This document shows, one piece after another, positions 1 to 47,052 of a DNA stretch of 52,715 bases. The position numbers were made by a program, and so were the translations under genes. The notes under the pieces were generated by a model, which saw nothing but the letters and a program-made list of their open reading frames with translations, was not told the DNA's origin and ran no database searches. Numbering within the stretch: the stretch's first letter is position 1; each line of letters starts with the position of its first letter. The stretch is from Myxococcales bacterium (lineage in GTDB: Bacteria > Myxococcota_A > Polyangia > Nannocystales > Nannocystaceae), in the NCBI GenBank assembly GCA_020633295.1, contig JACKDW010000006.1, positions 462,181 through 514,895 of the forward strand. The letters are read 5' to 3'.

Positions 1-687
1 GACCGCGACGCTCGAGCCCGCCAGCGCGCCGCCGACCCCCGCGCGCCAGGCGACGCCCTCCTCGATGGCGTCCAGCGCCATGATCAGCCCGACCCACAGC
101 GAGCAGGCCGCGAGCTGGTGCCCGTACAGCAGGTGCGCGTAGGCGTTCGCCGGCGTGCCCAGGGCGTAGACGACCAGCGCCAGCGCGACCGGAGCGTAGG
201 CGCGCGCGCCCCTCCGCGTCGCCCCTGCGGTCAGCCGTCGCCAGAGGAACCCGCACAGCAGCAGCGTCGGCGCGAGCCCGCCCAAGAGGCGCGCCCACCA
301 CGTGTAGCGCCGCAGCGTCAGCGCCTCGCCGCGCGCGCGCGCGTGCGCCCGCGCGAGCCAGTACGCCGGCGCCGTCGTCAACGTCGCGCCGGGCGGCTTG
401 TTCGGGTAGAGGCGCTGATCCACCGGGCTGCGCGCGACATCGGGCCCTGTCTTCAAGCCGCGCGCCGCGGGGCCGTCGATGGCCCACGAGCCCGCCTCGA
501 CCAGCGACATCCCCTGGATCAGCCGCGGGCGCTCGTTCGCGTTGCGCGTGGCCTCGGCGTACGGGAACGAGTAGCCGAGCAGCAGCGCCAGCGTCGCGAT
601 CAACGCGACGCCGACCCAAGGCCGCCGATCCGCTGCGCGCGGCGTCTCGAGGCGCCGCGTGTCGCTATCGTCCTGCGCGTCCCGCAT
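1..687 (-). CDS. Membrane glycosyltransferase-like protein, 5' portion (ArnT/PMT-like GT-C fold?). Gene continues past the window edge.
   Basis: Minus-strand reading frame is open from the ATG at 685-687 to the window edge. Manual translation (MRDAQDDSDTRRLETPRAADRRPWVGVALIATLALLLGYSFPYAEATRN...LYPNKPPGATL...) gives several hydrophobic transmembrane stretches, and a 'NKPPG' segment resembles the DKPPL motif of ArnT/PMT-type transferases. The ORF track omits it because it is truncated. A good RBS (GGAG) precedes the pspA gene just downstream on the same strand. Confidence 0.4.
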   Translation of the reverse strand, partial: MRDAQDDSDTRRLETPRAADRRPWVGVALIATLALLLGYSFPYAEATRNANERPRLIQGMSLVEAGSWAIDGPAARGLKTGPDVARSPVDQRLYPNKPPGATLTTAPAYWLARAHARARGEALTLRRYTWWARLLGGLAPTLLLCGFLWRRLTAGATRRGARAYAPVALALVVYALGTPANAYAHLLYGHQLAACSLWVGLIMALDAIEEGVAWRAGVGGALAGSSVAV

Positions 688-722: not shown

Positions 723-1424
723 TCAGTCGCCGTCGGTGAGCGCCTTTCGGTCGAGCTTGGCCTTGAGCGCCGCGAGCTCGTCGTCGAGCTCATCGGTCGC
801 GTCGAGGTTGGCGAACTTCGCGTCGAGCTCGGCCTCGGCCACGCGCTCGTTCATCTCGCCCGAATTGACCTCGTTCAGCGCCTCGATCGCCGCGATCTTG
901 TCCTCGATCGCGTTAATGCGCGCGCCGGCCTCGCCGCCGCTCGAGATCTCCTCCTCGAGGTTGCGCCCCTTCTTGGCCGCGCGCGCCTGGGCCATCAGGC
1001 TCCCACGCCGCATGTTCAGCGACTTCAGCTTCGCCTTCGCCTCCTTGAGGCCGTCGCGCATGCTGTCGATCGTCTTCTGCTGCTGGGCCATCGCCTCCTC
1101 GAGCGACTTGCGCTCGGTCGTGACCTCGGACTTCCGCTGCAGCGCGGCGCGGGCGAGCTTGTCGTCGCCGATCTTGACCGCCTGGGTCGCGCGGCCGTGC
1201 CAGTTCGCCTCGTCCTTCTGCAGCCCCTCGAGCTTCCGCGCCATGACCTTCTGGTCCACCATCGCCTGACGCAGGTCGCCCTCGCCCTTCTTGATGTTGT
1301 CGGCGAGGTCATCGAGCATCAGCGCGACCTCTTGCCCGGGATCTGACATCGCATCGACCGCGTCGTTGAGCGTCGAGGAGATCGAGTTTCGGATCCGGGA
1401 GAACAGGCCTGGTTTCTTGCTCAT
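723..1424 (-). CDS. pspA: PspA/IM30 family protein (phage shock protein A / Vipp1-like)
   Basis: 233 aa. N-terminus MSKKPGLFSRIRNSISSTLNDAVDAMSDPGQEVALMLDDLADNI and a long heptad coiled coil are typical of PspA/IM30. GGAG lies 9 nt upstream of the ATG. Confidence 0.9.
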   Translation of the reverse strand: MSKKPGLFSRIRNSISSTLNDAVDAMSDPGQEVALMLDDLADNIKKGEGDLRQAMVDQKVMARKLEGLQKDEANWHGRATQAVKIGDDKLARAALQRKSEVTTERKSLEEAMAQQQKTIDSMRDGLKEAKAKLKSLNMRRGSLMAQARAAKKGRNLEEEISSGGEAGARINAIEDKIAAIEALNEVNSGEMNERVAEAELDAKFANLDATDELDDELAALKAKLDRKALTDGD

Positions 1425-1733: not shown

Positions 1734-1860
1734 CAGTACATGACTAAATAGACAGGTTACGCGCGACGACGCGCGCGCACGCGCGGCGACGCGCGCTGAT
1801 CTCCACGCGATCACGCGGCGCCGCTACGCTCATAAAGAGACATGTACATAAAAACCTGTC
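1734..1860. promoter_or_regulatory. AT-rich divergent promoter region with paired inverted boxes (GTACATG...GACAGGTT at 1736-1758; CATGTACAT...AACCTGTC at 1841-1860)
   Basis: Two 7-8 bp boxes each recur as their reverse complement about 100 bp apart. ATGTACAT at 1842-1849 is a perfect palindrome. The region is much more AT-rich than the flanking 70% GC DNA and lies between divergent pspA (-) and the ligase gene (+). Confidence 0.3.
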
Positions 1861-1883: not shown

Positions 1884-3164
1884 ATGTCGAGTAGCAACCA
1901 TGGAAAGCCGCCCGTCCTGCTCGCGCACAAGTGGGCGACAGGCCACGATCCCGCCGGCTGGTGGATGAGCGAGAAGCTCGACGGCGTCCGCGCGTACTGG
2001 GACGGGCGGCGCTTCCTCTCCCGCCAGGGTAACGAGTACATCGCGCCGTCGTGGTTCACGCGGCCGCTGCCGCGGCACCCGCTCGACGGCGAGCTGTGGA
2101 TCGATCGCAAGCAATTTCAGAAGTGCGTCGGGGTGGTCCGCCGGCAGAAGGCCGACGACGGCTGGAAGCAGGTCAAGTACCTCGTGTTCGACGCGCCCTC
2201 GCACGGCGGCATCTTCGAAGACCGGGTCGAGCACCTCACCGACCTCATCACCGGCATGGGCGCGCGCCACGTCGTCGCGGTCGATCACGTCCGCTGTCGC
2301 GATCACGCGCACCTGATCACCGAGTTCAACCGCGTCGAGGCGCTCGGCGGCGAGGGCCTGATGCTCCGCGAGCCGCGCTCGATGTACGCGGCCGGCCGCT
2401 CCCGCTCCCTCCTCAAGGTCAAGCGCTTCCACGACGCCGAGGCCAAGGTCCTCGGCTACATCGACGGTCAGGGGCGACACGCGGGTCGCGTCGGCGCGCT
2501 CTCGGTCGTCACGCCCGGCGGCGTACACTTCGCGATCGGCTCGGGGCTCTCTGACGCCGACCGCGATGACCCGCCGAAGATCGGCGCCATCGTCACGTTT
2601 CGTTACCAGGAGCTGACCGACGCGGGCGTCCCGCGGTTCCCGACCTTCGTCCGGATCCGTGACGACTTCGACTGGCCGACCAACGGCGCCAGCGCGAGCC
2701 GTCCCGTCGCCTCCAGCGTCCCGCTGACCCCCGCCGCCGCCAGGGCCTCGAGCGGCTCCGGCAAGACGACGAGCAAGACGAGCAAGACGAGCAAGACGAC
2801 GAGCAAGTCGTCGGGCAAGACGAAGAGCAAGCCCAAGAGCGCGCCCACGAGCACGCCCGCCGCGCCGACGGCAACGACGCCCGCGACGTCAACGACGCCC
2901 GCGACGTCAACGACGCCCGCGACGTCAACGACGCCCGCGACGAGCGCGGGCACCAACGTGACGCGCTACTTCGAAAAGCCGGGCGCGCCGGGCTCGTTTT
3001 GGGAGGTCACCGCCCAGGGCGTCGCCATGGCCGTGCGCTACGGCGAGCTGGGCACGCGCGGCAAGACCAAGCTCAAGACCTTCCGCGACGCGGCGCGGGC
3101 GACCCGCGAGGCCGAGCGGCTGCTCGCGATCAAGCTGAAAAAGGGCTTCGTCGAGAAGCCCTGA
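1884..3164 (+). CDS. ATP-dependent DNA ligase (minimal nucleotidyltransferase + OB fold) fused through a low-complexity Thr/Ser/Lys/Pro linker to a C-terminal WGR domain
   Basis: 426 aa. Ligase motif I KLDGVRAYWDG, motif III-like YLVFDAP, motif IV EGLMLRE, motif V LLKVKRF, and an OB domain (AIVTFRYQELTDAGVPRFPTFVRIRDD). The linker has TSKTSKTSK and (TTPATS)n repeats. The C-terminal 70 aa (TRYFEKPGAPGSFWEVTAQGVAMAVRYGELGTRGKTKLKTF...AIKLKKGFVE) match the WGR fold pattern. Confidence 0.85.
   Translation: MSSSNHGKPPVLLAHKWATGHDPAGWWMSEKLDGVRAYWDGRRFLSRQGNEYIAPSWFTRPLPRHPLDGELWIDRKQFQKCVGVVRRQKADDGWKQVKYLVFDAPSHGGIFEDRVEHLTDLITGMGARHVVAVDHVRCRDHAHLITEFNRVEALGGEGLMLREPRSMYAAGRSRSLLKVKRFHDAEAKVLGYIDGQGRHAGRVGALSVVTPGGVHFAIGSGLSDADRDDPPKIGAIVTFRYQELTDAGVPRFPTFVRIRDDFDWPTNGASASRPVASSVPLTPAAARASSGSGKTTSKTSKTSKTTSKSSGKTKSKPKSAPTSTPAAPTATTPATSTTPATSTTPATSTTPATSAGTNVTRYFEKPGAPGSFWEVTAQGVAMAVRYGELGTRGKTKLKTFRDAARATREAERLLAIKLKKGFVEKP
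2761..2945 (+). repeat. In-frame tandem repeats encoding the ligase linker (AAGACGAGC-type 9-mers at 2764-2810; 18-bp unit ACGACGCCCGCGACGTCA x4 at 2874-2945)
   Basis: Direct reading. The second block has three perfect plus one imperfect 18-bp copies and encodes TTPATS repeats. Confidence 0.7.
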
Positions 3165-3233: not shown

Positions 3234-3644
3234 CTAGCTCGCGGCGCCGCTGTCGATCCCGAGGATCTCCTTCACCTGGTTGATGAAGCGCTCCTCCTTC
3301 TCGGTGACCTTGCCGTCGGAGTACGCCAGCTGGATGAGGTGAATGACGACCGCGTTGCGCTGCTTCTCCGACATCCCGCCGGCGCCGTCGCGACCGTCGC
3401 GCAGGATCTCGACCGCCTTGATCACGGCGTCGTCGCGCGCCGCCTCGTCGGGCAGGCTGTTGTGCCACTCGCCGACCTCCGAGAGCACGCCCGCGATCTG
3501 CTCGCGCCGGGCGTCCGGGATCCACTTGTGCAGCAGGTCGACGGCCTTGACCACCTCGTCCGCGCTCATGCCTTCGTCCGTCGCGTGAATAAACCGGAGG
3601 TACAGGAACCCGAGGATGTGGATTGGGGTCATCTTCTCTAGCAT
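3234..3644 (-). CDS. TerB-like (tellurite-resistance TerB / DjlA N-terminal-like) domain protein
   Basis: The real start is probably the internal ATG at 3642-3644 (MLEKMTPIHILGFLYLRFIHATDEGMSADEVVKAVDLL...LIQLAYSDGKVTEKEERFINQVKEILGI), about 136 aa. The longer 290-aa ORF upstream is an Arg-rich extension that is unlikely to be coding. Confidence 0.65.
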   Translation of the reverse strand: MLEKMTPIHILGFLYLRFIHATDEGMSADEVVKAVDLLHKWIPDARREQIAGVLSEVGEWHNSLPDEAARDDAVIKAVEILRDGRDGAGGMSEKQRNAVVIHLIQLAYSDGKVTEKEERFINQVKEILGIDSGAAS

Positions 3645-4124
3645 CGGTGCTTCGCTCCTCGTCTCGAGGCGGTCCCGGCCGCCGCGTGAGTGTCGGGAAT
3701 CATATCGCAGCGCCCTCCTCCGCAGGGCAGCGAGCTCGCTGCGTGTACACGCGCACGCGTCGCGATCATCGCGCGACGGCGCGGGCACGCGTCGCGCCTG
3801 CGCGCTCGGGCGAGCTCGAGTCGCGCTCCTCGAGCGAGCCGCGAGCGATCGTGCCGGCCGCGGGACCGCGCGCGCGCGCGCGCTTCTGCGGACGCGCCGT
3901 AAAACCTGCGGCGACTCGACTCGAGTCTTCGGCAAAAACAGCGACGCCGCGCGCGAGTTCGCCCCGGATCGAGCGGGCGATCCGCGCGCCTCGTGTGATA
4001 CGGTTCGCACGCGCTGACTGGGGCCCCGACGCCGATCCCGTCCACAATCGGTGATCGCGCTCGGCGAGCGCCCGTCTGCGACGTCTGTTATCCGTCCGAC
4101 CCCCAACCTGGAATCACGACGACC

Positions 4125-9931: not shown

Positions 9932-11635
9932 TCAGCCGAGGCCGTACGCGCGAACCCGGTACTCGTCGAGCATCCGCTGGGCGTTGAAGTAGGACCCCGC
10001 CAGGGCGATCGAGCCGCGCATGACCTCGGACCACGCGTGGGGGTTGTCCCGGTACATCGGGAGCACCACCGCGTCGAGCAGTCGATACAGCTGATCCGCT
10101 TCGGCATCATCGGCGTCGTCCCCGTGATGGCCGTGGGGCTCAATCGCCCAGCCGGTGTGCCCGATGATGCAGCCCTCGACCCACCAGCCGTCGCGCACGC
10201 TGAGGTTGGGCACACCGTTGTGCGAGGCCTTCATCCCGCTCGTGCCCGACGCCTCGAGCGGCGCCCGCGGCGTGTTGAGCCAAAGATCAACACCAGAGGT
10301 CAGCAAGAGCCCGAGATCCATGTTGTACCCGGGGATATAGGTCAGCTGGATGTCGGGACCGACGCGCGCGCGCAGCCCGTGAATCTCGGAGATGAGCCGC
10401 TGCCCCTCCTCGTCGCGGGGATGCGCTTTGCCAGAGTACACGAGCTGCAGGCGCCCGTGACGCGCGGCGATCGCCCGAAGCCGCTCGATGTCGCGGAGCA
10501 CCAGCGTCGGGCGCTTGTAGGCGGTCGCGCGCCGGGCGTATCCGATCGTGAAGACGTCGGGATCGAGCTGCACGCCGCAGCGTGTCGCTACCTCGGCGAG
10601 CAGCGCGCGCTTGGCCGCGTTGTGGGCGGCGACGATCTCGTCGAGCGGGATCCGCTCCGCGAGGCGAAGCGCGTAGTTCTGGTGGCGCCACTGCGGGATG
10701 TGACGATCAAACAGCGCGCGAAACGACGGGCTCGTCCAGCTCGTGGAGTGCACGCCGTTGGTGATCGCGTGGATCTCGTGGCCGGGGAACATCCCGCGGG
10801 AGACTTCGCCGTGACGCCGCGCGACGCCGTTGACGAAGCCGCTCAGCGCCAGCCCGAGCCGGCTCATATTGAGCTCGGCGTGCTCCTGCTCGGGGAGGCG
10901 AGAGAACAGCGCGAGCCCCTTCTCGCCGAGCACGCGCCGCGCGAGGTCACGCGAGAACGAGTCATGTCCCGCCGGCACGGGCGTGTGAGTCGTGAACACG
11001 CAGGCGGCGCGTACGTCGTCGATCGCCTCGGCGAGCTGCGCGTCGCCGGGACCCTCGAGCTTCGCGCGCAGCAGATCGAGCGCGAGCAGGGACGAGTGCC
11101 CCTCATTCATATGGTAGACGCGCGGCGTGTAGCCGAGCGCGGCGAGCATCCGGCGCCCGCCGATCCCGAGGATGATCTCCTGGGCGAGGCGATAGCGCTC
11201 ATCTCCGCCGTAGAGATGATCCGTGAAGCGTCGATCGTCGGGGCTGTTGGGCGCGATATCGACATCGAGGTACAGGATCGGGATCACGTGCCCGTCGATG
11301 CCCGAAAGACGCAGGATCCAGGCCTGCACGGCGACGACGCGCCCCTCGATCTCGACGGTGACGCTCGGGTGCTCGAGACGCTCGAGGTGCTCGGACGGCT
11401 CCCACTCGACCGGGGCGACCTCCTGGCGTCCGTCGCTGGTAATGCGCTGCTGAAAGTACCCCTGGCGATGGAGCAACGTCACCGCCACAAGCGGCAGGCC
11501 CATGTCCGCGGCGGCGCGCAGCGTGTCCCCGGCCAGCACGCCGAGTCCACCCGAGTAAGTTGGGATACGCGCGGACAGCCCGATCTCCATGGAGAAGTAC
11601 GCGATCTGAGCGGGAGGCGTGATGTGGTCTGGCAT
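9932..11635 (-). CDS. glgP: Alpha-glucan (glycogen/maltodextrin) phosphorylase, GT35 family
   Basis: 567 aa. N-terminus IAYFSMEIGL...GGLGVLAGD and the PLP-site region EASGTSGMKASHNGVPNLSVRDGWWVEG are characteristic of the short alpha-glucan phosphorylases. Confidence 0.9.
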   Translation of the reverse strand: MPDHITPPAQIAYFSMEIGLSARIPTYSGGLGVLAGDTLRAAADMGLPLVAVTLLHRQGYFQQRITSDGRQEVAPVEWEPSEHLERLEHPSVTVEIEGRVVAVQAWILRLSGIDGHVIPILYLDVDIAPNSPDDRRFTDHLYGGDERYRLAQEIILGIGGRRMLAALGYTPRVYHMNEGHSSLLALDLLRAKLEGPGDAQLAEAIDDVRAACVFTTHTPVPAGHDSFSRDLARRVLGEKGLALFSRLPEQEHAELNMSRLGLALSGFVNGVARRHGEVSRGMFPGHEIHAITNGVHSTSWTSPSFRALFDRHIPQWRHQNYALRLAERIPLDEIVAAHNAAKRALLAEVATRCGVQLDPDVFTIGYARRATAYKRPTLVLRDIERLRAIAARHGRLQLVYSGKAHPRDEEGQRLISEIHGLRARVGPDIQLTYIPGYNMDLGLLLTSGVDLWLNTPRAPLEASGTSGMKASHNGVPNLSVRDGWWVEGCIIGHTGWAIEPHGHHGDDADDAEADQLYRLLDAVVLPMYRDNPHAWSEVMRGSIALAGSYFNAQRMLDEYRVRAYGLG

Positions 11636-11768
11636 GTCGAGCGACGGATCATTCCGGCCACGCGTTCGCGGGTCAAGACCGCGAGGTCACGCTGTACACA
11701 CGCACAGACGCGCGCAAGCGCGTTCGCGCCGGGGCCCGCGTCGTCACGCGCACGACCAACACGCTTCG

Positions 11769-14429
11769 CTATCGCCGCCGTCGTCGGCCCGACGACGCGA
11801 CCGCGAGCAGGAGCAGCGCGGCGAGGGACGGCCCACGCTCGCGGGTCGTGCTGCACGCGCATCCCGAGCCGCCACCGTCTTCGTCGAAGCCGGTCTCTGT
11901 GCCGCTCGTCGCCGTCGATCCGGCCGTGGTGCTCGCGGGGCCGTCGCTCGACGCGGCCGAGCCATCGCTGCTCGCGTCCACCGTGCTCGCGTCGGATCCT
12001 GAGCCCGTGGTCGTCGACGAGTCCTCCGTCGTCCCGCCGGTCTCGCTGTCCGTCGTTCCGGTCGTCTCGCCCGGGTCCTCCCCGTAGTACGCGCCGCACG
12101 CTGGCTCCGAGAACATCCCGGCCCGATGCGCGAGCGAGAGCGTGTAGGCGCCCGCGCCGAAGCCGAGCATCGGCGTGTTGAATTTGTAGGTCCCGTCGTT
12201 CTCGTCGAAGGTCTCCGCGACCATGAGGAAGTTGGCGAGCGCCTGGTCGAGCACCCAGTTCGTGAGCGCGTCGGCCCGCGCCGCGTCGCCGGCCATCCGC
12301 TTGGCGATCGACCCGCGAAGATCGGTGATCACCCACTCGGCGCTGTCGTAGTCGCTGCCCCAGGGGCTCACGTCCTCGGCGTTCGCGTGATCCCAGCGAT
12401 CGTCGTTGCGCGACCAGCCCTCGCCGGCCGCGACCGCGAGGTGCGCGTCGAGGCCGTCGAGCGTCGCCTGCGCGATCGGACCGGTCGGATCAAACAGCCC
12501 CATGGCGATCGCGTCGAGCACGGCCGCGTCCCAGTAGCCCTCGCCGACCGCGAGCTCCTCGGTGTTGACCGCGATCGCGCCGCCGCCGTCCGTGAGCCGC
12601 GCGGCGATCGCCCCGCGGAGCGCCTCGGCGGCCGCTTGATACGCCGACGCCCGCGCCGCGTCGCCGCGCCGCTCGGCGATCGCGGCGGCGTCGCACAGGC
12701 CCCGCGCCGCCGTGATGTTCGTGTAGGCGAAGTGGCGCTCGCGCCCGTTCCAGTGCGTCTCCCAGATCGACGAGTCGGGGCGCAGCAGGCCGGTGTCGGG
12801 CTCGATCAACGCGAGGATGACATCGGCGATCTCGGTCGCTATCAGCTCCCAGTTGTCGTCGGCCACGCTCGTGTCGCCGGTCGCGATCTCGTAGACGCGC
12901 AGCGCCCACAGAAACAGCCCGAAGCCGTCGAACTCGAGGTTGGGGCCGAAGTCGTTGAAGTCCGTCTCCTCGACGCCGAAGCCGTAGTAGCGCACCAGGC
13001 TGATCTGGTAATCGGGCATGTCGTACGAGGCGAGCTCGCCCCAGTCCTTGAAGCGGCCTGCCTCTGCGTTCAGGTAGAATCGCAGGCCGTCGCGCGCCTC
13101 GTCGGCCATCCCGAGGATCGCCATGGCCGCGACCCCGTAGGCGCCGTCGCGGATCCACGCGTACGTCCAGTTGCCCGGGGGCATGCTCGCGAGCAGCGCC
13201 CCGCGCGCGTTGTGCTCGACCTCCGCGGGCAACACCGCCGGGTCATCGGCGCCGGCGGGGAAGCGGGTCCTGCGGACATCCCCGTCGCTCGCGAGGTGCT
13301 CGCGGAGGAAGTAGCGATCCTCCTGCACCTGTCCCATGCGCAACATCGCCGCCGAGTGCCGCACGAGCGTCTCCTCGTCATCACCGAGCCCGTCGGGCGG
13401 GGTGAGCGTGCTCTGGAACGCGGCCCACGCCCCGAGCTCGGCCTCGACGAGCGTCTGCGCGCCCTGCCCCCCCGCGTAGTCCTCGAGCCACTGCTGCGCC
13501 GCGTCGCCCGCGAAGGGGTCGGGGTGATGCGCGAACGCGACGCCCGCCCACGCCTCCGCGCCCGCGTCGATCGTCCCGAGGTCGAACTGCAGCGCCGCGA
13601 CCGATCCATCGACCGCGTCGGCAGGCGGCGCGTTGTCCGGGAGGTCCGCGAGCGAGTCCTTCACGAGGTCATAGACGGCGACGCCGGGCGCGAAGCCCTT
13701 GTGCGCGATCGGTCCGAGGGCGCGGGTCGCGATGGCGCCGGCGAAGCCGCGCTCGAGGATCGTCTGGCCCGCGTCGGTGATCGTCTCGCCGTTCTCGCCG
13801 ATATCCTGCCCGACCTCCCAGGGCGAATTCGCGCGCCCGTACCCCAGATGAAAGTTGCTCAGCGAGAACGCCTGCACGCCCGGGAGCGCCTGATTCGAGT
13901 TGTTGCGCACGCGCAGCGCGAGCACGACGGCGGCGCGGGGAACGTCGCGCGGCGCGAACACGAAGGTCGTGAACTCGAGGTCGCCAGCGTGCTGCACCAC
14001 CGCCACGACCCCCGACCCGCCTGTCGCCTCCGACGTGTAGCCCACGTACCCGCTGGCGTCGTGGTCGACGGGGAGCTCGGTCAGCCAGAACTGCTCTCCG
14101 GCGACCCGCGCGCCGAAGTAGGCGTCGAACACGAGATCACGGGTGTAGACGGCGGCGAATTGGCCCCCGTCCCAGATCTCCTCGCCGTTCTCGTCGAGCT
14201 GGGGCTCCTCGGCGGCGAACAGGTGCTCGCGAAATTGCTCGAGCTTCCCGCTCTCGAGGTTCACCAAGCCGGCGCCGTGTCCATTCGAAAACGGCAGCTC
14301 AAAGCGCGTGCGCTGGACGGGCACGGCGGCCCGGGCGTCGGTCCCCAGCGCCCCCGCGAGCGTCAGGGTCACGAGCGAGAAGACCGCCACACCCCGACCG
14401 GGGGCTTGAGAGAGCAGGCGCGCGCACAT
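11769..14429 (-). CDS. Secreted GH15 glycoside hydrolase (glucoamylase/glucodextranase-like) with MYXO-CTERM tag
   Basis: 886 aa. Signal peptide; GH15-like (alpha/alpha)6 region with a WIRDGAY motif; C-terminal Thr/Ser/Gly-rich linker; then GGGSGCACSTTRERGPSLAALLLLAVASSGRRRRR. Confidence 0.8.
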   Translation of the reverse strand: MCARLLSQAPGRGVAVFSLVTLTLAGALGTDARAAVPVQRTRFELPFSNGHGAGLVNLESGKLEQFREHLFAAEEPQLDENGEEIWDGGQFAAVYTRDLVFDAYFGARVAGEQFWLTELPVDHDASGYVGYTSEATGGSGVVAVVQHAGDLEFTTFVFAPRDVPRAAVVLALRVRNNSNQALPGVQAFSLSNFHLGYGRANSPWEVGQDIGENGETITDAGQTILERGFAGAIATRALGPIAHKGFAPGVAVYDLVKDSLADLPDNAPPADAVDGSVAALQFDLGTIDAGAEAWAGVAFAHHPDPFAGDAAQQWLEDYAGGQGAQTLVEAELGAWAAFQSTLTPPDGLGDDEETLVRHSAAMLRMGQVQEDRYFLREHLASDGDVRRTRFPAGADDPAVLPAEVEHNARGALLASMPPGNWTYAWIRDGAYGVAAMAILGMADEARDGLRFYLNAEAGRFKDWGELASYDMPDYQISLVRYYGFGVEETDFNDFGPNLEFDGFGLFLWALRVYEIATGDTSVADDNWELIATEIADVILALIEPDTGLLRPDSSIWETHWNGRERHFAYTNITAARGLCDAAAIAERRGDAARASAYQAAAEALRGAIAARLTDGGGAIAVNTEELAVGEGYWDAAVLDAIAMGLFDPTGPIAQATLDGLDAHLAVAAGEGWSRNDDRWDHANAEDVSPWGSDYDSAEWVITDLRGSIAKRMAGDAARADALTNWVLDQALANFLMVAETFDENDGTYKFNTPMLGFGAGAYTLSLAHRAGMFSEPACGAYYGEDPGETTGTTDSETGGTTEDSSTTTGSGSDASTVDASSDGSAASSDGPASTTAGSTATSGTETGFDEDGGGSGCACSTTRERGPSLAALLLLAVASSGRRRRR

Positions 14430-14489
14430 GCACAGAATCTACTCCGAGTTCTCGCCCGGGAGGGCGACGCATTTTTGTATCGTGATGCC

Positions 14490-17212: not shown

Positions 17213-17284
17213 GCTGGCGTAGCTCAACGGTAGAGCACCTGCTTTGTAACCAGGTGGCTGTGGGTTCGACTCCCACCGCCAGCT
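17213..17284 (+). tRNA. tRNA-Thr (anticodon TGT)
   Basis: Manual cloverleaf: 7-bp acceptor stem GCTGGCG/CGCCAGC; D-arm GCTC-AACGGTA-GAGC; anticodon arm CCTGC-TTTGTAA-CCAGG (one C-C mismatch at the loop-proximal pair); T-arm GTGGG-TTCGACT-CCCAC. CCA is not encoded. Confidence 0.7.
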
Positions 17285-30423: not shown

Positions 30424-30657
30424 TCCGGGCGGGTCGAGGGCGCGGTCGTTGTATACGCGAGCGCGGCGCGAGCTCGCGTGGACTCGCGTGGACTCGCGGG
30501 GACATACTACCGGCGCGAAGCGTGATGATACAAGCGCTGACGCCCTGGCCCGCGCGGCCCCTCTCCGCGGACGGGGCGAACGCGTGGCGCTGGGGACAGG
30601 ACGGTGTTATTCGTCGGCGGTCCCGCGCGTCGCCACGCGTTCGTCCACGACGAGTCC

Positions 30658-31881
30658 ATGGAGGGCCTCACCACTCGCACCGCAGCACGCCTCGCGCTCG
30701 CGCGGGCTGGCCTGCTCAACCCGGCGTGGACCGGTCTGCCCGCGCGCGTCTCGCCGCGGGCTGGCGCCGCGAGCTCGCTCCCCGCCGCGCTCGCGCACAT
30801 CGAACGCGCCGGCTACCTGCAGCTCGACACCGTGGCCGTCGCTGGCGCCCGCAGCCACGGCATCGTGCTGGCGTCGCGGCTCGAGGGCTACCGGGCGGCG
30901 CACGCCGAGACGCTGCTCACCCCCGACTCGGCGCTGTTTGAGTACTGGGGTCACGAGGCGAGCTGGCTGCCGATCGAGCTGTACCCGGCGTTCGCGTTTC
31001 GCCGCGCCGCGTTCGCGGTGCACCCGTGGTGGGGCGACCTGCTCGAGGAGCACTCGCAGCAGGCGCGCGCGCTCGTCGAGCGAATCCGCGCCGAGGGGCC
31101 GCTGCGCTCCGCCGATCTCGAGGGCTCGTCGCGCGGCGGCTTCTGGAACCTCAAGCTGTCGAAGAAGATCGCGACGGCGCTGTGGTCGAGCGGCGAGCTG
31201 GCGATCCGCGAGCGTCGCGGCTTCCTGCGCGCCTACGATCTGTGCGAGCGCGTCATCCCGGCGCGCGCCCGCGCCCGCCCGCTCCCGCTCGCGGACAGCC
31301 TCCGCGTGCTGCTCGAGCGCGCGCTCGCGGGTCACGGCTGGGCGACGACGAGCACGCTCGCGGCGACCTGGCGGCTCCGCAACCTGCGGGCCGAGCTCGC
31401 CGCCGCGCTGTCGGAGCTGCGCGAGGCCGGCGTGATTCACCCCTGCGAGCTGCGCGCGGACGACGGTCAGCGGACCCGCGGCTGGATCCGCGTCGCCGAT
31501 CTCGAGCTCGCGGCGCGCGTCGGCCGAGCTCGCCCGCGACGCGATCGCGGCGTGCTGCTCTCGCCCTTCGATCCGGTGCTGTGGGACCGCGGCCGCGTCG
31601 CGCAGCTGTTCGCTTTTGACCAGAAGCTCGAGATCTTCAAGCCGCCCGCGACCCGCGTCTACGGCTACTACTGTATGCCCGTGCTCGCCGGGGACCAGCT
31701 CGTCGCGCGCGTCGATCTCAAGGCCGATCGACGCGCAGGCGCGCTCGAGCTGCGCGCGCTCCACTATGAGCCGCCCGCGTCGTGCGGGACCACGGCGGCC
31801 GAGCAGCGCGCGGCCGTCGAGCACGGGCTGCGCCGGTACGCGGCGAGCGTCGAGCTGCGCGCGCCGACGCTGCCAGGCTGA
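30658..31881 (+). CDS. YcaQ/AlkZ family winged-helix protein (DNA interstrand-crosslink repair glycosylase-like, DUF1006)
   Basis: Start ATG at 30658 (MEGLTTRTAARLALARAGLL). Strong block similarity to E. coli YcaQ as I recall it: EYWGHEASWLP, RSADLEGS...GFWNLK...RERRGFLRAYDL, LLSPFDPVLWDRGRVAQLFAFDQKLEIFKPPATRVYGYYCMPVL. Confidence 0.85.
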   Translation: MEGLTTRTAARLALARAGLLNPAWTGLPARVSPRAGAASSLPAALAHIERAGYLQLDTVAVAGARSHGIVLASRLEGYRAAHAETLLTPDSALFEYWGHEASWLPIELYPAFAFRRAAFAVHPWWGDLLEEHSQQARALVERIRAEGPLRSADLEGSSRGGFWNLKLSKKIATALWSSGELAIRERRGFLRAYDLCERVIPARARARPLPLADSLRVLLERALAGHGWATTSTLAATWRLRNLRAELAAALSELREAGVIHPCELRADDGQRTRGWIRVADLELAARVGRARPRRDRGVLLSPFDPVLWDRGRVAQLFAFDQKLEIFKPPATRVYGYYCMPVLAGDQLVARVDLKADRRAGALELRALHYEPPASCGTTAAEQRAAVEHGLRRYAASVELRAPTLPG

Positions 31882-42805: not shown

Positions 42806-45800
42806 TCAGCGCCCCGCCGCGCGGTGACGCAGGCAGTAGAGGTGGCGGTCGTGACCGCCGACGATCACCTCGAGGACCCCGTCCCCGTCGACATCTGCGG
42901 CCGTCGGCGCCGCCTCGATCGGCTGATCGGGCGTCGTCCGGAACCGCCAGCGCGACGCGCCGTCGAGGGCCGAGAGCGCGTGCACCGTGCCGTCGCGCAG
43001 CCCGAGCAGCAGCTCGGGCGCCCCGTCCGACTCGAGATCGGCGACGGTCAGCGGGCTGCCGATCTCGAGCGCGTCGCCGTCGGGCCCGGTGAAGCTCCGC
43101 TCCCATCGCGGCGCGCCGTCGCGGTCCAGCGCGACGAGCCCGCGCGCGCGCGACCCCGCGATGATCTCGAGCGCGCCGTCCCCGTCGATGTCGACGATCG
43201 CCGGCGCGCTCCGGCTGGTCCCGAGGCCAGGTATCGCCCAGCGCAGCGCGCCGTCGGCCGCGCTCCTGCACTCCACGCCGTCGTCGTGGGTCAGCGCGAG
43301 CTCGAGGACGCCATCGCCGTCGAGGTCGGCGACCGCGGGCGCGTGGACCATGCGCTGCGCGAGCGCGACGCTCCACGCGGGCGCGCCGTCGCGGCCGCGC
43401 AGCGCGACCAGCGTGCCGTCGAGCAGCGTGAGGAGCACGATGGGCTCGGCGGCGGCGCTCGGGCGGATGATGAGCGGGGTCGCCCACGCGCCGGTGCTCA
43501 GCGTCCGCCGCCACAGCGTTCGACGCAGCGCGCGACCGTCGACGGCCACGACCTCGCGGGCCGCGTCCCACGAGACCATGACGAGCTCCGCGTCGCCGTC
43601 GCCGTCGAGGTCGCCGACGCCCGGCGACGCGTACGCGGTGAACGCCTCGACCTGCTCGAGCGCCCGCGCGTCGACGCCGGAGTGACGCTGCAGGCGACCG
43701 CTCACGAGCGTGATGACGTCGAGCCCGCCGTCGTCGCGGGGGAGCAGCGCGGGCGCGCGGATCATGATCGGCCGCTCGTCGCTGGCGGCCTGCAGCAGCC
43801 CGGTGCGCGCGTCGAACAGCAGCAGGCCCGAGCTCGCGCCCACGCTGTTGTGCACGACGAGCTCGGGCTCGCCGTCGCCGTCCGTGTCCGCGACGCGCGG
43901 CCGCCCGCGCACGGCGTCCGCCGCCCGTCGCTGCCACACGACCTTGGGCCCCGTGATGACCGTGGGCCCGTTGGTGTCGACGAGCAGCTCGTCGAATCCG
44001 TCGTGGTTCGCGTCGCGCGTGCGCTGGAGGCGAAGCACGCCCGAGGTCAGCGGGACGGTGCCCAGCGGCGCGAGCGATCGCGTGTACGCGTGCAGCGTCT
44101 GGCCGATGACGCCCACGAGCTCGCGCGCGCCGTCGCCGTCCCAGTCGGCGGCGATCGGGTGGATGAGCGGCGTGTCCGCGCGCTGACGCAGCAGCTCGCC
44201 GCTGGCGGCGTCTCGCAGCTCGAGCCGACCGTCCGCGACCAGCACGACGACCTGCGGTCCGCCGTCTTCGAAGCGGAGCAGTCGCGCGCCCCCGTCCGAC
44301 GGCCGCGTCCACAGCGGCCGTCCGCCTCGCCCGTCGATCATCGCGACCCTGACGCGCTCCTGCCCGTCGGCGCCCGGTGACGGCCGCGCGTCGTCGGGGA
44401 GCAGGCTGAGCACGTCCGGCGCGCCGTCGCCGTTGACGTCGCCGATCGCGTCCTCTCGCTCGAGCGCCGAGGCGCGCGCGACGACGACGCGCCACCCCAG
44501 CGCGCCGCCGCGCGCCGCCGCGCTCCACAGCGAGTCCTGCTCGCCGGTTCGCCCGCGGCCGACGATCCGCGTCTCGCCGTCGCCCCCGACGAGCGCGTGC
44601 AGACCCAGCTCGCGCGCGCTCGGTCGAAACCCGTAGGCGAGCTGCTCATCCTCGTGCGACGTCGACCACAGCAGCGCGCCCGACCCAGCGTCGCGGGCCG
44701 CTCGTCGCCCGCCGCCGACTTCGAAGATCACCGGCGCGCGCGCGTCGACGCGCGCGTGCCGGACCCCTGCCCCCGCGCTCGCGACGCTCCACAGCGGTCG
44801 CCCCGTCGCCCCGTCGAGCGCGACCAAACGGTCCTTCCAGACACCCCACGCGAGCACGTCGAGCTGCCCGTCGACGCCGACGTCGTGGAGCAGGAGCTCG
44901 TGGTCATCACCCTCGGCGGCCTGCGCGTGGTCCGGGAGCGACGCGGCGGTCCAGCGCGGCTCGACGAGGCCGCGCGCCCGCGACGACCACGCGCGCACCA
45001 CGAGCCGCCCGTCCTCCGCCGCGACGCCGACGATGTCATCGACCCCGTCGCCGTCGAGCTCGCCGACGCGGGTCGCGGTCAGGATCCCCGGGTGGACCAC
45101 GACGCGCCACAGCTTCGCGTCGTTCCACGGGTCGTAGGCCGTCCAGACCCCGAAGTTGAGGTGCGCGAGGTCGTCGAGGCCGTCGCCGTTGATGTCGCCG
45201 AGCCAGCGCAGATCGAGGTTGACCCCCGTGACCGGTCGACTCCACGCGACCGCGCGCGTGAGCGAGACGAAGCGCGAGTGAGTCTCGCCGGCGACCGCCC
45301 GCCACGCGAAGCGCTGCTCGTAGTGCCCCTCCTTGCTCACCCGGATCGCGTGCTCGCCCGTGTCGACCGCGAAGTTGCGCAGCCGCGAGCCGTAGTCGAC
45401 GTCGTCGACGAACACGCTCCCGCCCGTCGGCTCGACGTCGAGCTCGAAGATCGCCTGCTCGTGCTGGAGCGTGAACGCGAGCTCGTGCCGCGCCCCGGCG
45501 CTGACGTCCGCGATCGCCTCGGCGGGCAGGAAGCCGGGGTCGTCGATCGTGACGCGGTGCAGCCCGGGGCGCAGGCGCAGCGCGCCGCCGGGCGCGTCGG
45601 CCGGCGCGCCGTCGACGAGCACGCGCGCCGGCGTGTACGGCCGCCCGCGCCAGCTCGCCCGGAGCACGACCTCACCTGGCTGGATCAACAGGTACACGAG
45701 GTAGCCGAGCAGCGTCAGCGCCATCGGCACGCTCACGAGCGTCAGCGCGCGACGGAGCTGTCGCACCCGCCGGCGCTCGAGCGCCGCGATCAAGGCGTGC

Positions 45801-46831
45801 ACGTCGGGAAACCGCGCGTCACGATCCACGCTCAGCCCACGCCGCAGGAGCGCCCGCAGCCAGCGCGGGATCACCCGGGCGTCAGCCGGCGGGCTCGGGT
45901 CCCCCTTGAGGATGAGCGCGCGCAGGTAGCCGAGGCGCTTGGCCTGGAACGGGCGCTCGCCGTAGAGCGCCTCCCACAGCGCGACGCAGAGGCTGTACTG
46001 ATCGCCGCGCGCGTCCTCGGCGTGCCCGAGGTAGCGCTCCGGAGGGATGTACGCCGGGGTGCCGAGCAGCGCGCCCTCCTGCGTGAGCTGATCGGAGAGC
46101 GGATCGCTCTCGCTCGCGGACAGGGGCGCGCCCGCGTCGATCGACCTCGGCTCGCTCGCCTTGCCCGACGCGCCGAGCGAGACGGCGCGCGCGAGGCCGA
46201 AGTCGAGGATCACCGCGCGGCCGCGCTGGTCGATCATGATGTTGTCTGGCTTGAGGTCGCGGTGCAGCAGCCCCTGCTCGTGGGCCGCCGCGAGCCCGCG
46301 CGCGACCTGGACGAACACCTCGACGATCGCGGGGATCGATCGTTTCTGCTCCTTGAGCCAGGCGCGTAGCGTCACCCCCTCGATGAACTCGATCGCCAGG
46401 AACACGCGGCCGTCGACGAGCCCGACGTCGTAGACCTGCGCGACGTTCGGGTGCGAGATCCGGGCGCCCGCGCGGGCCTCTCGGAGCAGGCGCGCGCGCG
46501 CGGCCTCGGCGTCCTCCGCCGCCGAGATCCGATCGGTGCGCAGCAGCTTGATCGCGACCTTGCGATCGAGCTCGCGGTCGTAGGCGCGGTGCACGACGCC
46601 GAGGCCGCCCGCGCCGAGCTTGCCGATCAGCATGAAGCGCCCGACCACGCTGCCGGTCGTGAGCTCGGGCGCTCGCTTCGCGCGCGCGGGCCCGGGCGCG
46701 AAGCCCCACGCGAGCGCCCCCGCCGCATCGGTCGCCGGCGCGTCAGCGCCTGGCAGCGCGCGCGTCGGGGCGTCGTCCGAGTCGGTCGAGTCCGCCGACG
46801 CCGAACCGACGTGATGATCCGAGAGCAGCAC
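42806..46831 (-). CDS. Receptor-type Ser/Thr protein kinase: cytoplasmic kinase, one TM helix, large extracytoplasmic FG-GAP/VCBS beta-propeller repeat region
   Basis: 1341 aa. Kinase motifs GKLGAGGLGVVHRA, HRDLKPDNIMI, DFGLA. TM LTLVSVPMALTLLGYLVYLLI. At least 10 DxDGDGxxE/D-type FG-GAP repeats. Confidence 0.85.
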   Translation of the reverse strand: MLLSDHHVGSASADSTDSDDAPTRALPGADAPATDAAGALAWGFAPGPARAKRAPELTTGSVVGRFMLIGKLGAGGLGVVHRAYDRELDRKVAIKLLRTDRISAAEDAEAARARLLREARAGARISHPNVAQVYDVGLVDGRVFLAIEFIEGVTLRAWLKEQKRSIPAIVEVFVQVARGLAAAHEQGLLHRDLKPDNIMIDQRGRAVILDFGLARAVSLGASGKASEPRSIDAGAPLSASESDPLSDQLTQEGALLGTPAYIPPERYLGHAEDARGDQYSLCVALWEALYGERPFQAKRLGYLRALILKGDPSPPADARVIPRWLRALLRRGLSVDRDARFPDVHALIAALERRRVRQLRRALTLVSVPMALTLLGYLVYLLIQPGEVVLRASWRGRPYTPARVLVDGAPADAPGGALRLRPGLHRVTIDDPGFLPAEAIADVSAGARHELAFTLQHEQAIFELDVEPTGGSVFVDDVDYGSRLRNFAVDTGEHAIRVSKEGHYEQRFAWRAVAGETHSRFVSLTRAVAWSRPVTGVNLDLRWLGDINGDGLDDLAHLNFGVWTAYDPWNDAKLWRVVVHPGILTATRVGELDGDGVDDIVGVAAEDGRLVVRAWSSRARGLVEPRWTAASLPDHAQAAEGDDHELLLHDVGVDGQLDVLAWGVWKDRLVALDGATGRPLWSVASAGAGVRHARVDARAPVIFEVGGGRRAARDAGSGALLWSTSHEDEQLAYGFRPSARELGLHALVGGDGETRIVGRGRTGEQDSLWSAAARGGALGWRVVVARASALEREDAIGDVNGDGAPDVLSLLPDDARPSPGADGQERVRVAMIDGRGGRPLWTRPSDGGARLLRFEDGGPQVVVLVADGRLELRDAASGELLRQRADTPLIHPIAADWDGDGARELVGVIGQTLHAYTRSLAPLGTVPLTSGVLRLQRTRDANHDGFDELLVDTNGPTVITGPKVVWQRRAADAVRGRPRVADTDGDGEPELVVHNSVGASSGLLLFDARTGLLQAASDERPIMIRAPALLPRDDGGLDVITLVSGRLQRHSGVDARALEQVEAFTAYASPGVGDLDGDGDAELVMVSWDAAREVVAVDGRALRRTLWRRTLSTGAWATPLIIRPSAAAEPIVLLTLLDGTLVALRGRDGAPAWSVALAQRMVHAPAVADLDGDGVLELALTHDDGVECRSAADGALRWAIPGLGTSRSAPAIVDIDGDGALEIIAGSRARGLVALDRDGAPRWERSFTGPDGDALEIGSPLTVADLESDGAPELLLGLRDGTVHALSALDGASRWRFRTTPDQPIEAAPTAADVDGDGVLEVIVGGHDRHLYCLRHRAAGR

Positions 46832-47052
46832 TGGCGCGCGCCCGCGTGATTATCGCATATCGCCGCGGCGCGCCGACGCGTTATAGCTGTCTTAAACGAC
46901 AGAAGTATTTGTACATGTTGAAGAAGCCCGACGGTCGCGCGCGCGACGACCTCGAGGCGCCCGCCGCGGCGCGCGCCCGTCGGTCGAGGCGCGCGCCGCT
47001 GATCAGCGCGCGCTCGACCGGACGCCGCTGGCTCACCAGCGCGGGCGCTCGC

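Follow-up and report, generated by a model that had tools for sequence, protein, structure and literature searches.

A leaderless ATP-dependent DNA ligase of the Lig E type joined through a disordered basic linker to a C-terminal WGR domain in a Myxococcales bacterium

Among bacterial ligases, Lig E has been described as one of the most enigmatic. In its canonical form, represented by the enzymes of Psychromonas (Psy-Lig, PDB 4d05), Alteromonas (Ame-Lig, 6gdr) and Neisseria gonorrhoeae (Lig E, 8u6x), it consists of a nucleotidyltransferase (NTase) and an OB_2 domain with complete catalytic motifs, carries a periplasmic leader, and possesses neither a DNA-binding domain nor a latch. Its signature DNA-binding motifs are G-K-G-K-aromatic and F-basic-I-G-S-G-F-x-D: in Psy-Lig, measurable DNA binding is lost in K191A, and the EC50 rises 7-fold in K212A (PMC6144786). 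Leaderless Lig E-like sequences from Myxococcales are already on record (PMC8455567), and an 'NT-OB_2-WGR' ligase cluster was described in delta-proteobacteria and Planctomycetia (Williamson & Leiros, NAR 2020; PMC7470946). Database entries of this type are annotated merely as 'DNA ligase', and biochemical data on any ligase-WGR protein were absent from the searched literature. Among the eukaryotic 'ligase E' proteins, AvLigE of the rotifer Adineta vaga, which carries a PBZ domain and Pro/Ser/Thr repeats, is radiation-induced, improves the radio-tolerance of human cells and is tied by experiment to DNA-break repair (PMC10665377).

The WGR domains of PARP-1/2/3 touch the 5' side of breaks, and the exchanges R140A and R103A in PARP-2/3 leave a DNA affinity of ~25% of the wild type (PMC4081085). 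In MolR-like transcription factors, the bacterial WGR is given as the DNA-binding domain (PMC7824862), and in other proteins it is called RNA-binding (2020 review, PMC7470946). Broad literature searches on the function of bacterial WGR domains returned nothing relevant.

The window analysed here, a Myxococcales stretch of 52,715 nucleotides, carries a gene whose product is confirmed to be a Lig E-type ATP-dependent ligase core, followed by a disordered basic linker and a C-terminal WGR domain:

1884..3164, plus strand: ligase-linker-WGR gene, 426 aa, ATG start, stop codon at 3162-3164
1884..2438, plus strand: nucleotidyltransferase (adenylation) domain, aa 1-185 (PF01068, PRK09125, invariant residues, pLDDT >90)
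1974-1985, plus strand: motif I, K31-L-D-G, with the adenylatable lysine (read from sequence)
2082-2099, plus strand: motif III, LDGELW, aa 67-72 (read from sequence)
2178-2198, plus strand: motif IIIa, YLVFDAP, aa 99-105 (read from sequence)
2352-2369, plus strand: motif IV, EGLMLR, aa 157-162 (read from sequence)
2409-2423, plus strand: motif V, LLKVK, aa 176-180 (read from sequence)
2439..2675, plus strand: OB-fold domain, PF14743 (Lig E/viral type), aa 186-264 (Pfam score, Foldseek to 6gdr_A)
2466-2486, plus strand: degenerate Lig E motif G-Q196-G-R198-H199 (alignment to Lig E)
2529-2555, plus strand: degenerate Lig E motif F-A217-I-G-S-G-L-S-D (alignment to Lig E)
2631-2666, plus strand: motif VI, PRFPTFVRIRDD, aa 250-261 (read from sequence)
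2676..2954, plus strand: disordered basic low-complexity linker, aa 265-357, 93 aa (pLDDT <50, composition, repeats)
2761-2831: DNA tandem repeat in the linker, 12-nt unit, 6.4 copies
2866-2942: DNA tandem repeat in the linker, 18-nt unit, 4.3 copies, 98% matches
2955..3161, plus strand: minimal WGR domain of ~70 aa, aa 358-426 (Pfam, AF2 model, Foldseek, dN/dS)
3039-3047, plus strand: WGR motif Y386-G387-E388 (read from sequence)

The reading frame has a strong coding bias (GC3 0.93), and a stop codon lies in frame just 3 codons 5' of the ATG, so that a longer N-terminus is impossible. The exact 426-aa sequence has no database record; the sole 100% identical entry is a 295-aa partial protein from a Myxococcales MAG (P0002). 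An antisense ORF at 2603..2956 (minus strand) also shows high GC3, which is an artefact of the low complexity of the repeats.

A first-pass annotation of this DNA had described a minimal two-domain ATP-dependent ligase fused to a WGR domain, and the Pfam scan bears this out: DNA_ligase_A_M (PF01068; aa 23-180, 35.2 bits, cut-off 26.2), DNA_ligase_OB_2 (PF14743; aa 195-259, 98.6 bits, cut-off 28) and WGR (PF05406; aa 371-425, 41.6 bits, cut-off 22, E 1.4e-10) all lie above their gathering cut-offs. The complete set of nucleotidyltransferase motifs and the OB fold that it had also listed are present, with six motifs legible in the sequence and KLDG situated within the adenylation domain. The motif residues are invariant in an alignment of 52 sequences. 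PRK09125, the NCBIfam equivalog for Lig E, is hit with 338.5 bits (cut-off 200), and Foldseek matches the solved structures of Lig E (4d05, 8u6x and 6gdr) at 38-43% identity (sequence E 4e-53 to 3e-65). The AF2 model of the core (pLDDT >90) fits the DNA-bound Lig E 6gdr_A with a TM score of 0.90 and an rmsd of 2.3 Å (Foldseek). The LigD models failed (TIGR02779, 47 against a cut-off of 227.75; TIGR02776, 36.6 against 373.2). The homology of the core to three characterised enzymes (Psy-Lig, Ame-Lig and Ngo-Lig) leads us to infer that it is an active ATP-dependent ligase.

Like canonical Lig E, the window protein has neither a DNA-binding domain nor a latch, but it differs in three respects: the leader, the signature motifs and a C-terminal extension of 160 aa, made of the linker and the WGR domain. 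The alignment to PRK09125 begins at profile position 24 of 283, leaving the leader segment (1-23) unmatched, and the N-terminus is hydrophilic (Kyte-Doolittle maximum 0.74 in a 9-residue window). Since the Lig E leader peptide is absent, the protein is predicted to be cytoplasmic. The signature motifs read G-Q-G-R-H and F-A-I-G-S-G-L-S-D: Q196 and A217 stand in place of the two DNA-binding lysines of Lig E, K191 and K212 in Psy-Lig, and only R198, the second basic residue, and the serine S220 are retained.

The linker was confirmed as the repetitive Thr/Ser/Lys/Pro tether of the earlier description. Pro, Ser, Thr, Ala and Gly make up 84% of aa 265-357, which hold 9 Lys and 2 Arg but no Asp or Glu (charge +11); a half rich in KTS and KSK is followed by TTPATS repeats, and tandem repeats in the DNA encode part of the segment. 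The segment is predicted to be disordered. In comparison with the orthologue at the syntenic locus L001, its length varies and its dN/dS is 0.62, against 0.15 for the WGR domain, a value indicating purifying selection.

The WGR domain is modelled as four beta-strands, a long helix and a short strand (pLDDT 88.8 for the domain alone). Its closest structural match is Bacteroides fragilis Q64V53 (PDB 2ra8; TM 0.84, 1.0 Å, 38% identity, motif Y-G-K), followed by the WGR domains of PARP-3 (TM 0.72) and PARP-2 (TM 0.61-0.64); a profile of the family retrieves 2ra8 with E 1.4e-22 and PARP-3 WGR with E 7e-7. Fold, Pfam match, dN/dS and retention in relatives together establish the WGR as a real, maintained module. 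With the PARP domains it shares the fold (TM 0.61-0.72, Foldseek probability 0.97-1.0), the profile pairing the family's 'ryGRiG' with 'rWGRVG' of PARP-3 (E 7e-7) and 'sWGRVG' of PARP-1, and the aromatic residue that touches the 5'-end sugars in PARP-1 is kept as Tyr. By contrast, it is only ~70 aa long (~120 aa in PARPs), is 9-13% identical, carries Glu for the motif Arg, and belongs to a protein without an ADP-ribosyltransferase domain to regulate. Of the 52 family sequences, 38 begin the motif with Y, 11 with F and 3 with W; all have the Gly, which is followed by R in 36 sequences, by K in 14, and by E and S in one each. The window protein thus keeps the aromatic residue and the Gly and has lost the basic residue (Tyr for Trp, Glu for Arg). 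It further has Ser where 51 of the 52 relatives have Lys, and Phe where 50 of 52 have Tyr. The net charge of the domain is +8.

Of the 120 clusters that match best in the database, 117 have the same combination of ligase, OB_2 and WGR. Named relatives belong to Myxococcales, Nannocystaceae, Archangium, Kofleriaceae and Planctomycetes, and members in Myxococcota, Planctomycetota and Melainabacteria/Obscuribacterales are 45-82% identical. These proteins carry 1-5 WGR copies, at the N- or the C-terminus, and this free position fits an independent binding module. With PF01068, PF14743 and PF05406 in identical order, the window protein corresponds to the NT-OB_2-WGR cluster: the fusion is already catalogued, and the gene is a sub-variant rather than a novel architecture. 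It deviates from that cluster in its motif (Y-G-E for [Y/F/W]-G-[R/K]) and in lacking an N-terminal CxC...CxH module, a majority feature that is not stated as defining. The module, weakly SWIM-like (E 0.02), is present in 108 of 113 relatives; the window protein, P0001, P0004, P0006, P0007 and L001-L003 form a sub-clade without it, and no remnant was found 5' of the gene.

Compensation for the lost lysines by the WGR domain was checked as a rule for the family. In the near clade, the K191-equivalent position is basic in 26 of 108 proteins and the K212-equivalent in 3 of 108, which fits such a rule. Across 30 WGR-bearing representatives, however, Lys occupies the K191 equivalent in 9 of 23 readable motifs and the K212 equivalent in 12 of 24, and the share of Lys at the latter is about the same in WGR-bearing and WGR-less representatives. 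Compensation is therefore rejected as a family-wide rule, and is put forward as a hypothesis for the window protein alone.

The gene is flanked on both sides by genes on the opposite strand:

723..1424, minus strand: PspA/IM30 gene, divergent neighbour (PF04012, E 2.6e-23)
1839..1850, plus strand: AT-rich palindromic element GACATGTACATA, 34-45 nt 5' of the start codon, in the pspA-ligase intergenic region
3234..3680, minus strand: TerB-domain gene, convergent neighbour, ATG probably at 3644 (PF05099, E 2.5e-9)

PspA and TerB are envelope and metal stress proteins, not DNA-damage proteins. Their presence had led to the suggestion of a damage or stress island; the neighbours are indeed there, but the island is weakly supported. 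Owing to their orientation, neither gene can form an operon with the ligase, and the order pspA(-)/ligase(+)/terB(-) recurs only in L001-L003, the three closest relatives, where ligase identity falls to ~50%; it is absent from L004-L024 and from six further annotated contexts. L001 shares additional flanking genes (FG-GAP, MBL, VWA and the gene left of pspA), which looks like general lineage synteny. No recurrent neighbour or operon partner of the ligase was found in nine contexts, and no conserved repair-gene neighbourhood in the contexts examined. Membership of an anti-phage defence system was rejected: PADLOC-DB models gave no match for the ligase, PspA, TerB, MBL and VWA proteins.

The element GACATGTACATA is conserved as GACATGTnCATA in four syntenic loci and occurs once in the window, against 0.03 matches expected; possibly it serves as a promoter or operator. 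A near-copy lies 5' of a kinase gene and contains a perfect CTGT-N8-ACAG, whereas the second half-site of the ligase copy is degenerate. CTG-N10-CAG does not occur consistently 5' of 21 other family genes, and L002 and L003 have a related motif 5' of a tRNA array. The element was therefore rejected as evidence of damage control of the SOS/LexA type. A search of the non-coding flanks for known RNA families yielded tRNAs only.

On balance, the gene product is probably a stand-alone intracellular ligase sealing nicks or breaks, in which the basic tether and the WGR domain supply DNA anchoring or targeting. ATP would adenylate K31, the NTase and OB domains would close round a 5'-phosphorylated nick, and the AMP would be moved to the 5' phosphate before the strand is sealed. 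This core chemistry is proposed because the motifs are conserved and the homology to characterised Lig E enzymes is close. As the two-domain core lacks a DNA-binding domain, a latch and both Lig E lysines, DNA engagement is proposed to come from the tether and the WGR domain: the former would contribute non-specific electrostatic affinity, while the latter would be a DNA-binding anchor, possibly a break sensor, that concentrates the core locally around nicks or ends. The enzyme could then take part in intracellular repair, sealing the nicks that excision repair leaves or joining ends, independently of Ku or LigD modules. The 'self-targeting nick-sealing enzyme' of the first-pass annotation is thus plausible as judged from sequence, and gains support from the dN/dS of the WGR domain, its PARP-2/3-like fold and the fusion of similar cores elsewhere to PBZ, BRCT and WWE. 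Against a DNA-engaging WGR speak the ~10% identity to PARP WGRs, a length shorter by ~50 residues, the Glu in place of the motif Arg and the occurrence of bacterial WGRs in proteins without an obvious DNA role; the lack of a conserved repair-gene neighbourhood and of an SOS-box-like operator speaks against a repair role.

The WGR domain could instead be an adaptor for proteins or ligands, by which a working ligase docks on a partner complex or on a polymer, for instance poly(ADP-ribose), RNA or polyphosphate. This is a serious alternative, although a rather unlikely one. Bacterial WGRs are indeed found in diverse non-DNA architectures: 2ra8, where the domain precedes ~280 residues, the fibronectin-binding family of Leptospira LIC_11051, a WGR + LRR protein (P0126), and a 2426-aa WD40/HEAT protein adjoining the ligase in Archangium. 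The window domain lacks the motif Arg and the near-invariant Lys, and in eukaryotic relatives its place is taken by PBZ, WWE and BRCT, which bind PAR or phospho-proteins, not DNA; the RNA-binding role given to WGR in other proteins (PMC7470946) points the same way. Against an adaptor, the nine contexts held no conserved partner gene beside the ligase and the window no visible PARP catalytic domain. The strong positive charge of the domain, after a lysine-rich tether, suits nucleic-acid binding, and WGRs of the PARP and MolR types are described as binding DNA (PMC4081085, PMC7824862).

A role in the pspA/terB stress response, with co-regulation, is improbable: the gene order kept in L001, L002 and L003 and the conserved intergenic element would fit it, but the opposite strands, the absence of this order from all other loci and contexts, the general synteny in L001 and the lack of any PADLOC match do not. 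Bacterial ATP-dependent accessory ligases often serve non-homologous end joining (NHEJ), and a Ku protein, with any polymerase or nuclease, might be encoded outside the 52.7 kb in view. Such a Ku-dependent role is slightly more improbable still, given an OB domain of type PF14743 and not of the LigC/LigD type PF04679, LigD models far under their cut-offs, and Lig E enzymes that are active without a binding partner (PMC8455567). The claim that no Ku or LigD partner is encoded nearby stands: none of these domains occurs in the ~29 gene-like ORFs of the window, and Ku and LigD polymerase/nuclease domains are also missing from the 8 kb left of the orthologue at L001 and from six further annotated contexts of relatives. 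The least probable reading makes the protein a canonical Lig E of the periplasm that works on extracellular DNA in competence or biofilm, as in Neisseria. PRK09125 is the best family match and Lig E enzymes are the closest solved structures, but the upstream stop, the hydrophilic N-terminus and the unmatched profile positions 1-23 make a leader peptide impossible, both signature motifs are degenerate, and canonical Lig E has no appended domains (PMC7470946, PMC8455567); the sequence effectively refutes this reading.

The favoured reading, an intracellular ligase anchored by its own tether and WGR domain, has functional analogues in human DNA ligase III and bacterial LigD, in which an ATP-dependent ligase core carries an appended break- or nick-recognition module. 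In ligase III, this is an N-terminal PARP-like zinc finger. The ligase cores of both match the window core at the fold level (Foldseek), but their accessory modules are unrelated to WGR, their OB domains are of the PF04679 type, ligase III also has a helical DNA-binding domain, and the LigD models do not recognise the window ligase. The protein 2ra8 and MolR-like proteins differ in another way, with an N-terminal WGR followed by non-ligase domains. The eukaryotic ligase E proteins are a further parallel. Four relatives with cores 50-57% identical to that of the window protein are fused to PBZ, BRCT or WWE (P0143, P0161, P0179 and P0186) and are presumably eukaryotic. As in AvLigE, a leaderless Lig E-type core is connected through a Pro/Ser/Thr-rich low-complexity tether to a damage-response recruitment module; only the module differs, being PBZ, BRCT or WWE there and WGR here.

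A bolder proposal, possible but doubtful, is that the minimal bacterial WGR is a genuine break or nick sensor, and that the fusion is a one-polypeptide, Ku-independent means of break sealing in Myxococcota, Planctomycetota and Melainabacteria. If so, a core poor at holding DNA would be delivered to 5'-phosphorylated breaks by 1-5 tethered WGR modules, which would be a prokaryotic precedent both for the way PARPs sense breaks through WGR and for the pairing of a Lig E core with a damage-reader module in radiation-tolerant eukaryotes.

The window itself adds a sub-variant and no new principle. The pairing of a leaderless Lig E core with a WGR domain nevertheless offers a simple system for two questions: whether the WGR domain was a reader of DNA breaks before PARPs, and how a ligase without a DNA-binding domain engages its substrate. 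As reagents for molecular biology, too, small ligases that bring their own DNA anchor could be of use. For the family, the parallel with eukaryotic ligase E, with its PBZ, BRCT and WWE modules and its link to extreme radiation tolerance, suggests by analogy that a catalytic cassette plus an interchangeable damage-targeting module may be a general design.

The ORF at 1884..3164 (+) starts with ATG, encodes 426 aa and has the codon bias of real genes (GC3 0.93, in a window of ~71% GC). Three Pfam domains, each above its curated cut-off, were identified in its product:

aa 23-180, DNA_ligase_A_M
aa 195-259, DNA_ligase_OB_2 (E 2e-28)
aa 371-425, WGR (E 1.4e-10)

Ligase motifs I (K31LDG), III, IIIa, IV, V and VI are all readable, and their key residues are invariant in an alignment of 52 family sequences. 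The fusion of a ligase to a WGR domain, which the first-pass annotation had proposed together with a Pfam scan as its check, is thus real. The repetitive linker that it described is also present: aa 265-357 consist for 84% of Pro, Ser, Thr, Ala and Gly, carry 11 basic and no acidic residues, and are predicted to be disordered, next to a ligase core and a C-terminal module with pLDDT of ~90 or more. Part of the linker DNA is made of near-perfect tandem repeats, with an 18-nt unit (x4.3, 2866-2942) and a 12-nt unit (2761-2831). An antisense ORF of 117 aa inside these repeats (2603-2956 (-), GC3 0.94) is almost certainly no gene but an artefact of the low-complexity composition.

Homology shows the product to be an ATP-dependent ligase, which would follow the standard three-step chemistry via K31. 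Of the family models, the NCBIfam equivalog PRK09125 (Lig E type) matches best (338.5 bits, cut-off 200), and the LigD/NHEJ models score far under their cut-offs. Among solved structures, Foldseek places Lig E of Psychromonas (4d05), N. gonorrhoeae (8u6x) and Alteromonas (6gdr) nearest, with identities of 38-43%, and the model superposes on DNA-bound Ame-Lig with a TM of 0.90 (2.3 Å). Canonical Lig E bears a periplasmic leader (PMC7470946, PMC8455567). The window protein, on the contrary, is predicted to be a cytoplasmic Lig E-type enzyme, because a leader is excluded by a PRK09125 alignment that starts at profile position 24, an in-frame stop three codons 5' of the ATG and a hydrophilic N-terminus. 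This agrees with the leaderless Myxococcales cluster noted among Lig E proteins (PMC8455567).

The claim that no Ku or LigD partner lies nearby holds: the gene-like ORFs of the 52.7-kb window contain no domain of Ku or of the LigD polymerase or phosphoesterase, and the 8-kb left flank of the orthologue in L001, one of the three syntenic loci of the closest relatives (L001-L003), has no Ku or LigD domain either. Across six Pfam-annotated contexts (Archangium, Obscuribacterales, Kofleriaceae, Planctomycetes and others), no common neighbour gene was found; Lig E likewise lacks operon-encoded partners (PMC8455567). No PADLOC defence model was matched. The adjacency of pspA and a TerB-like gene, initially read as a possible stress or damage island, is confirmed; the order pspA(-)/ligase(+)/terB(-) recurs in L001-L003 only. 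Further flanking genes are syntenic in L001 too; the arrangement therefore looks more like lineage synteny than a functional island. Nor do the three genes share one orientation. Directly 3' of pspA, on the same strand after a 35-nt gap, lies a gene cut by the window edge (1-687 (-)) that is probably co-transcribed with it. Its product lacks a Pfam match and shares 69% identity with the N-terminal part of a 560-aa protein (L001 5126-6808 (-)).

Elsewhere in the window, the sole other recognised DNA-repair gene encodes an AlkZ-like DNA glycosylase (30604-31881 (+), PF06224, E 4e-54), of an interstrand-crosslink repair family. At 40922-42640 (-), 38 kb from the ligase, a Ser/Thr protein kinase carries a C-terminal Macro domain (ADP-ribose-binding or -hydrolysing). 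This gene may be of interest, as eukaryotic WGR is tied to ADP-ribosylation systems. A glucan-metabolism cluster occupies 9932-16883:

9932-11635 (-), phosphorylase-like gene
11769-14429 (-), GH15 glucoamylase-like gene
~14700-16883 (+), alpha-amylase-domain gene
17213-17284, tRNA, 3' of the cluster

The ligase start is preceded, at a distance of ~35-45 nt and within DNA of 70% GC, by an AT-rich palindrome, GACATGTnCATA, possibly a promoter or operator specific to this lineage. It is conserved in the four syntenic loci:

window 1839-1850 (+)
L001 7952-7963
L002 7929-7940
L003 5730-5741

A near-copy, followed by a perfect CTGT-N8-ACAG palindrome, is located at 46887-46918 (-), upstream of a Ser/Thr kinase gene (42806..46831(-)), and in L002 and L003 a related GTACATGTACAT precedes a tRNA array by ~200 nt. 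The divergent pspA-ligase intergenic region also contains an 8-nt tandem repeat, TGACGCGC (x6, 97% matches, 1628-1675), which is not conserved in L001-L003.

The identity of the C-terminal module as WGR, indicated by Pfam, is confirmed by its fold. A domain-only AF2 model (pLDDT 88.8) matches the bacterial WGR protein 2ra8 (TM 0.84, 1.0 Å, 38% identity), PARP-3 WGR (TM 0.72) and PARP-2 WGR (TM 0.61-0.64). PARP WGR domains count ~120 aa, whereas this is a minimal version of ~70 aa; hence, an equivalent DNA-binding surface is not to be assumed. The family profile 'ryGRiG' aligns with 'rWGRVG' of PARP-3 and 'sWGRVG' of PARP-1, which makes Y386 the equivalent of PARP-1 W589, a residue touching the 5'-end sugars (PMC4081085). 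By the same alignment, E388 corresponds to PARP-1 R591 and PARP-2 R140; the substitutions R140A and R103A leave ~25% of the wild-type DNA affinity (PMC4081085). The E388 position is R or K in 50 of the 52 family sequences, T in L001 and S in the database relative P0001. S371 and F422 replace a K (51/52) and a Y (50/52), respectively. The net charge of the module, +8, is the highest of the set compared. Despite these motif changes, the module is maintained, as its dN/dS against the 76% identical L001 orthologue is 0.15, versus 0.62 for the linker (NTase 0.21, OB 0.07).

An N-terminal CxC...CxH module of ~60 aa is present in 108 of 113 ligase-WGR relatives (consensus DGE..V.GS...Y.L.N.GGVYSCTCPAW..QS..I..RTCKHL; P0008, P0014, P0015, P0049, P0063, P0090, P0116 and others). 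It probably represents a SWIM-like zinc finger that has escaped annotation, its Pfam match to SWIM being weak and under the cut-off (E 0.02). Some relatives additionally possess a BRCT domain. The module is missing from the window protein and its sub-clade (P0001, P0004, P0006, P0007, L001-L003), and no remnant was found upstream of the window gene. The latter is a sub-variant, without the zinc module and with an atypical WGR motif.

Lig E binds DNA without a DNA-binding domain, through the motifs G-K-G-K-aromatic and F-basic-I-G-S-G-F-x-D; in Psy-Lig, K191A abolishes measurable binding and K212A raises the EC50 7-fold (PMC6144786). In the window protein, by comparison, these motifs are degenerate (G-Q196-G-R198-H199 and F-A217-I-G-S-G-L-S-D). 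In the near clade, the K191-equivalent is basic in 26/108 proteins and the K212-equivalent in 3/108, versus Lys in 9/23 and 12/24 WGR-bearing representatives with readable motifs. The loss is a near-clade trend and not general.

For a core that has no DNA-binding domain or latch and, in this protein, neither of the Lig E DNA-binding lysines, we infer that the basic disordered tether and the WGR would provide an anchor on DNA or target the enzyme to breaks. Comparison lends most support to this through a domain substitution: in probable eukaryotic 'ligase E' proteins (P0143, P0161, P0179, P0186, P0133, P0165), whose cores share 50-57% identity with that of the window protein, PBZ (zf-CCHH), BRCT and WWE, all DNA-damage-response recruitment domains, are fused instead of WGR. 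In the rotifer AvLigE, PBZ domains are set in Pro/Ser/Thr repeats; radiation induces this enzyme, which ligates breaks and makes human cells more radio-tolerant (PMC10665377). The main alternative is that bacterial WGR acts as a protein or ligand adaptor and not as a DNA reader, to which the occurrence of WGR in non-DNA architectures and the lost motif Arg of the window protein both point; according to an independent survey, MolR-like transcription factors bind DNA through the bacterial WGR (PMC7824862). The first-pass observation of the fusion is thus confirmed, and its interpretation as a self-targeting enzyme is supported in part.

The fusion is not unusual. WGR (PF05406) and ligase domains occur together in 117 of the 120 best clusters (90% identity) from 5.8 billion proteins, with named members in Myxococcales, Nannocystaceae, Archangium, Kofleriaceae, Planctomycetes and Melainabacteria/Obscuribacterales; P0002, an incomplete sequence from a Myxococcales MAG, matches the window protein at 100% identity. 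Searched exhaustively, 1.84 billion cluster representatives gave 1,310 clusters at E <= 1e-30. Among the best 150 representatives of these, 30 carry WGR (1-5 copies), placed C-terminally in 16, N-terminally in 9 and on both sides in 1. Extreme variants of copy number and placement occur on the same core: P0121 bears five copies (1055 aa), P0003 four, P0160 three N-terminal ones, and P0126 WGR with leucine-rich repeats. In the Archangium sp. locus L025 (12620-17761), a 2426-aa WD40/HEAT-repeat protein with its own WGR, encoded two genes 3' of the ligase-WGR gene, shows the breadth of WGR use in myxobacterial proteins. The architecture is already catalogued, since a 2020 review had described WGR in the NT-OB_2 group: in its largest bacterial group (delta-proteobacteria, Planctomycetia), linked to fungal enzymes, WGR is annotated in more than two thirds of the sequences (PMC7470946). 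In the library searched, this review and one unrelated paper were the only texts to bring up WGR, ATP-dependent DNA ligase and bacteria together. The interest of the window gene is moderate to low, the architecture being common and already described; it nonetheless offers a clean way to study by experiment what bacterial WGR does.
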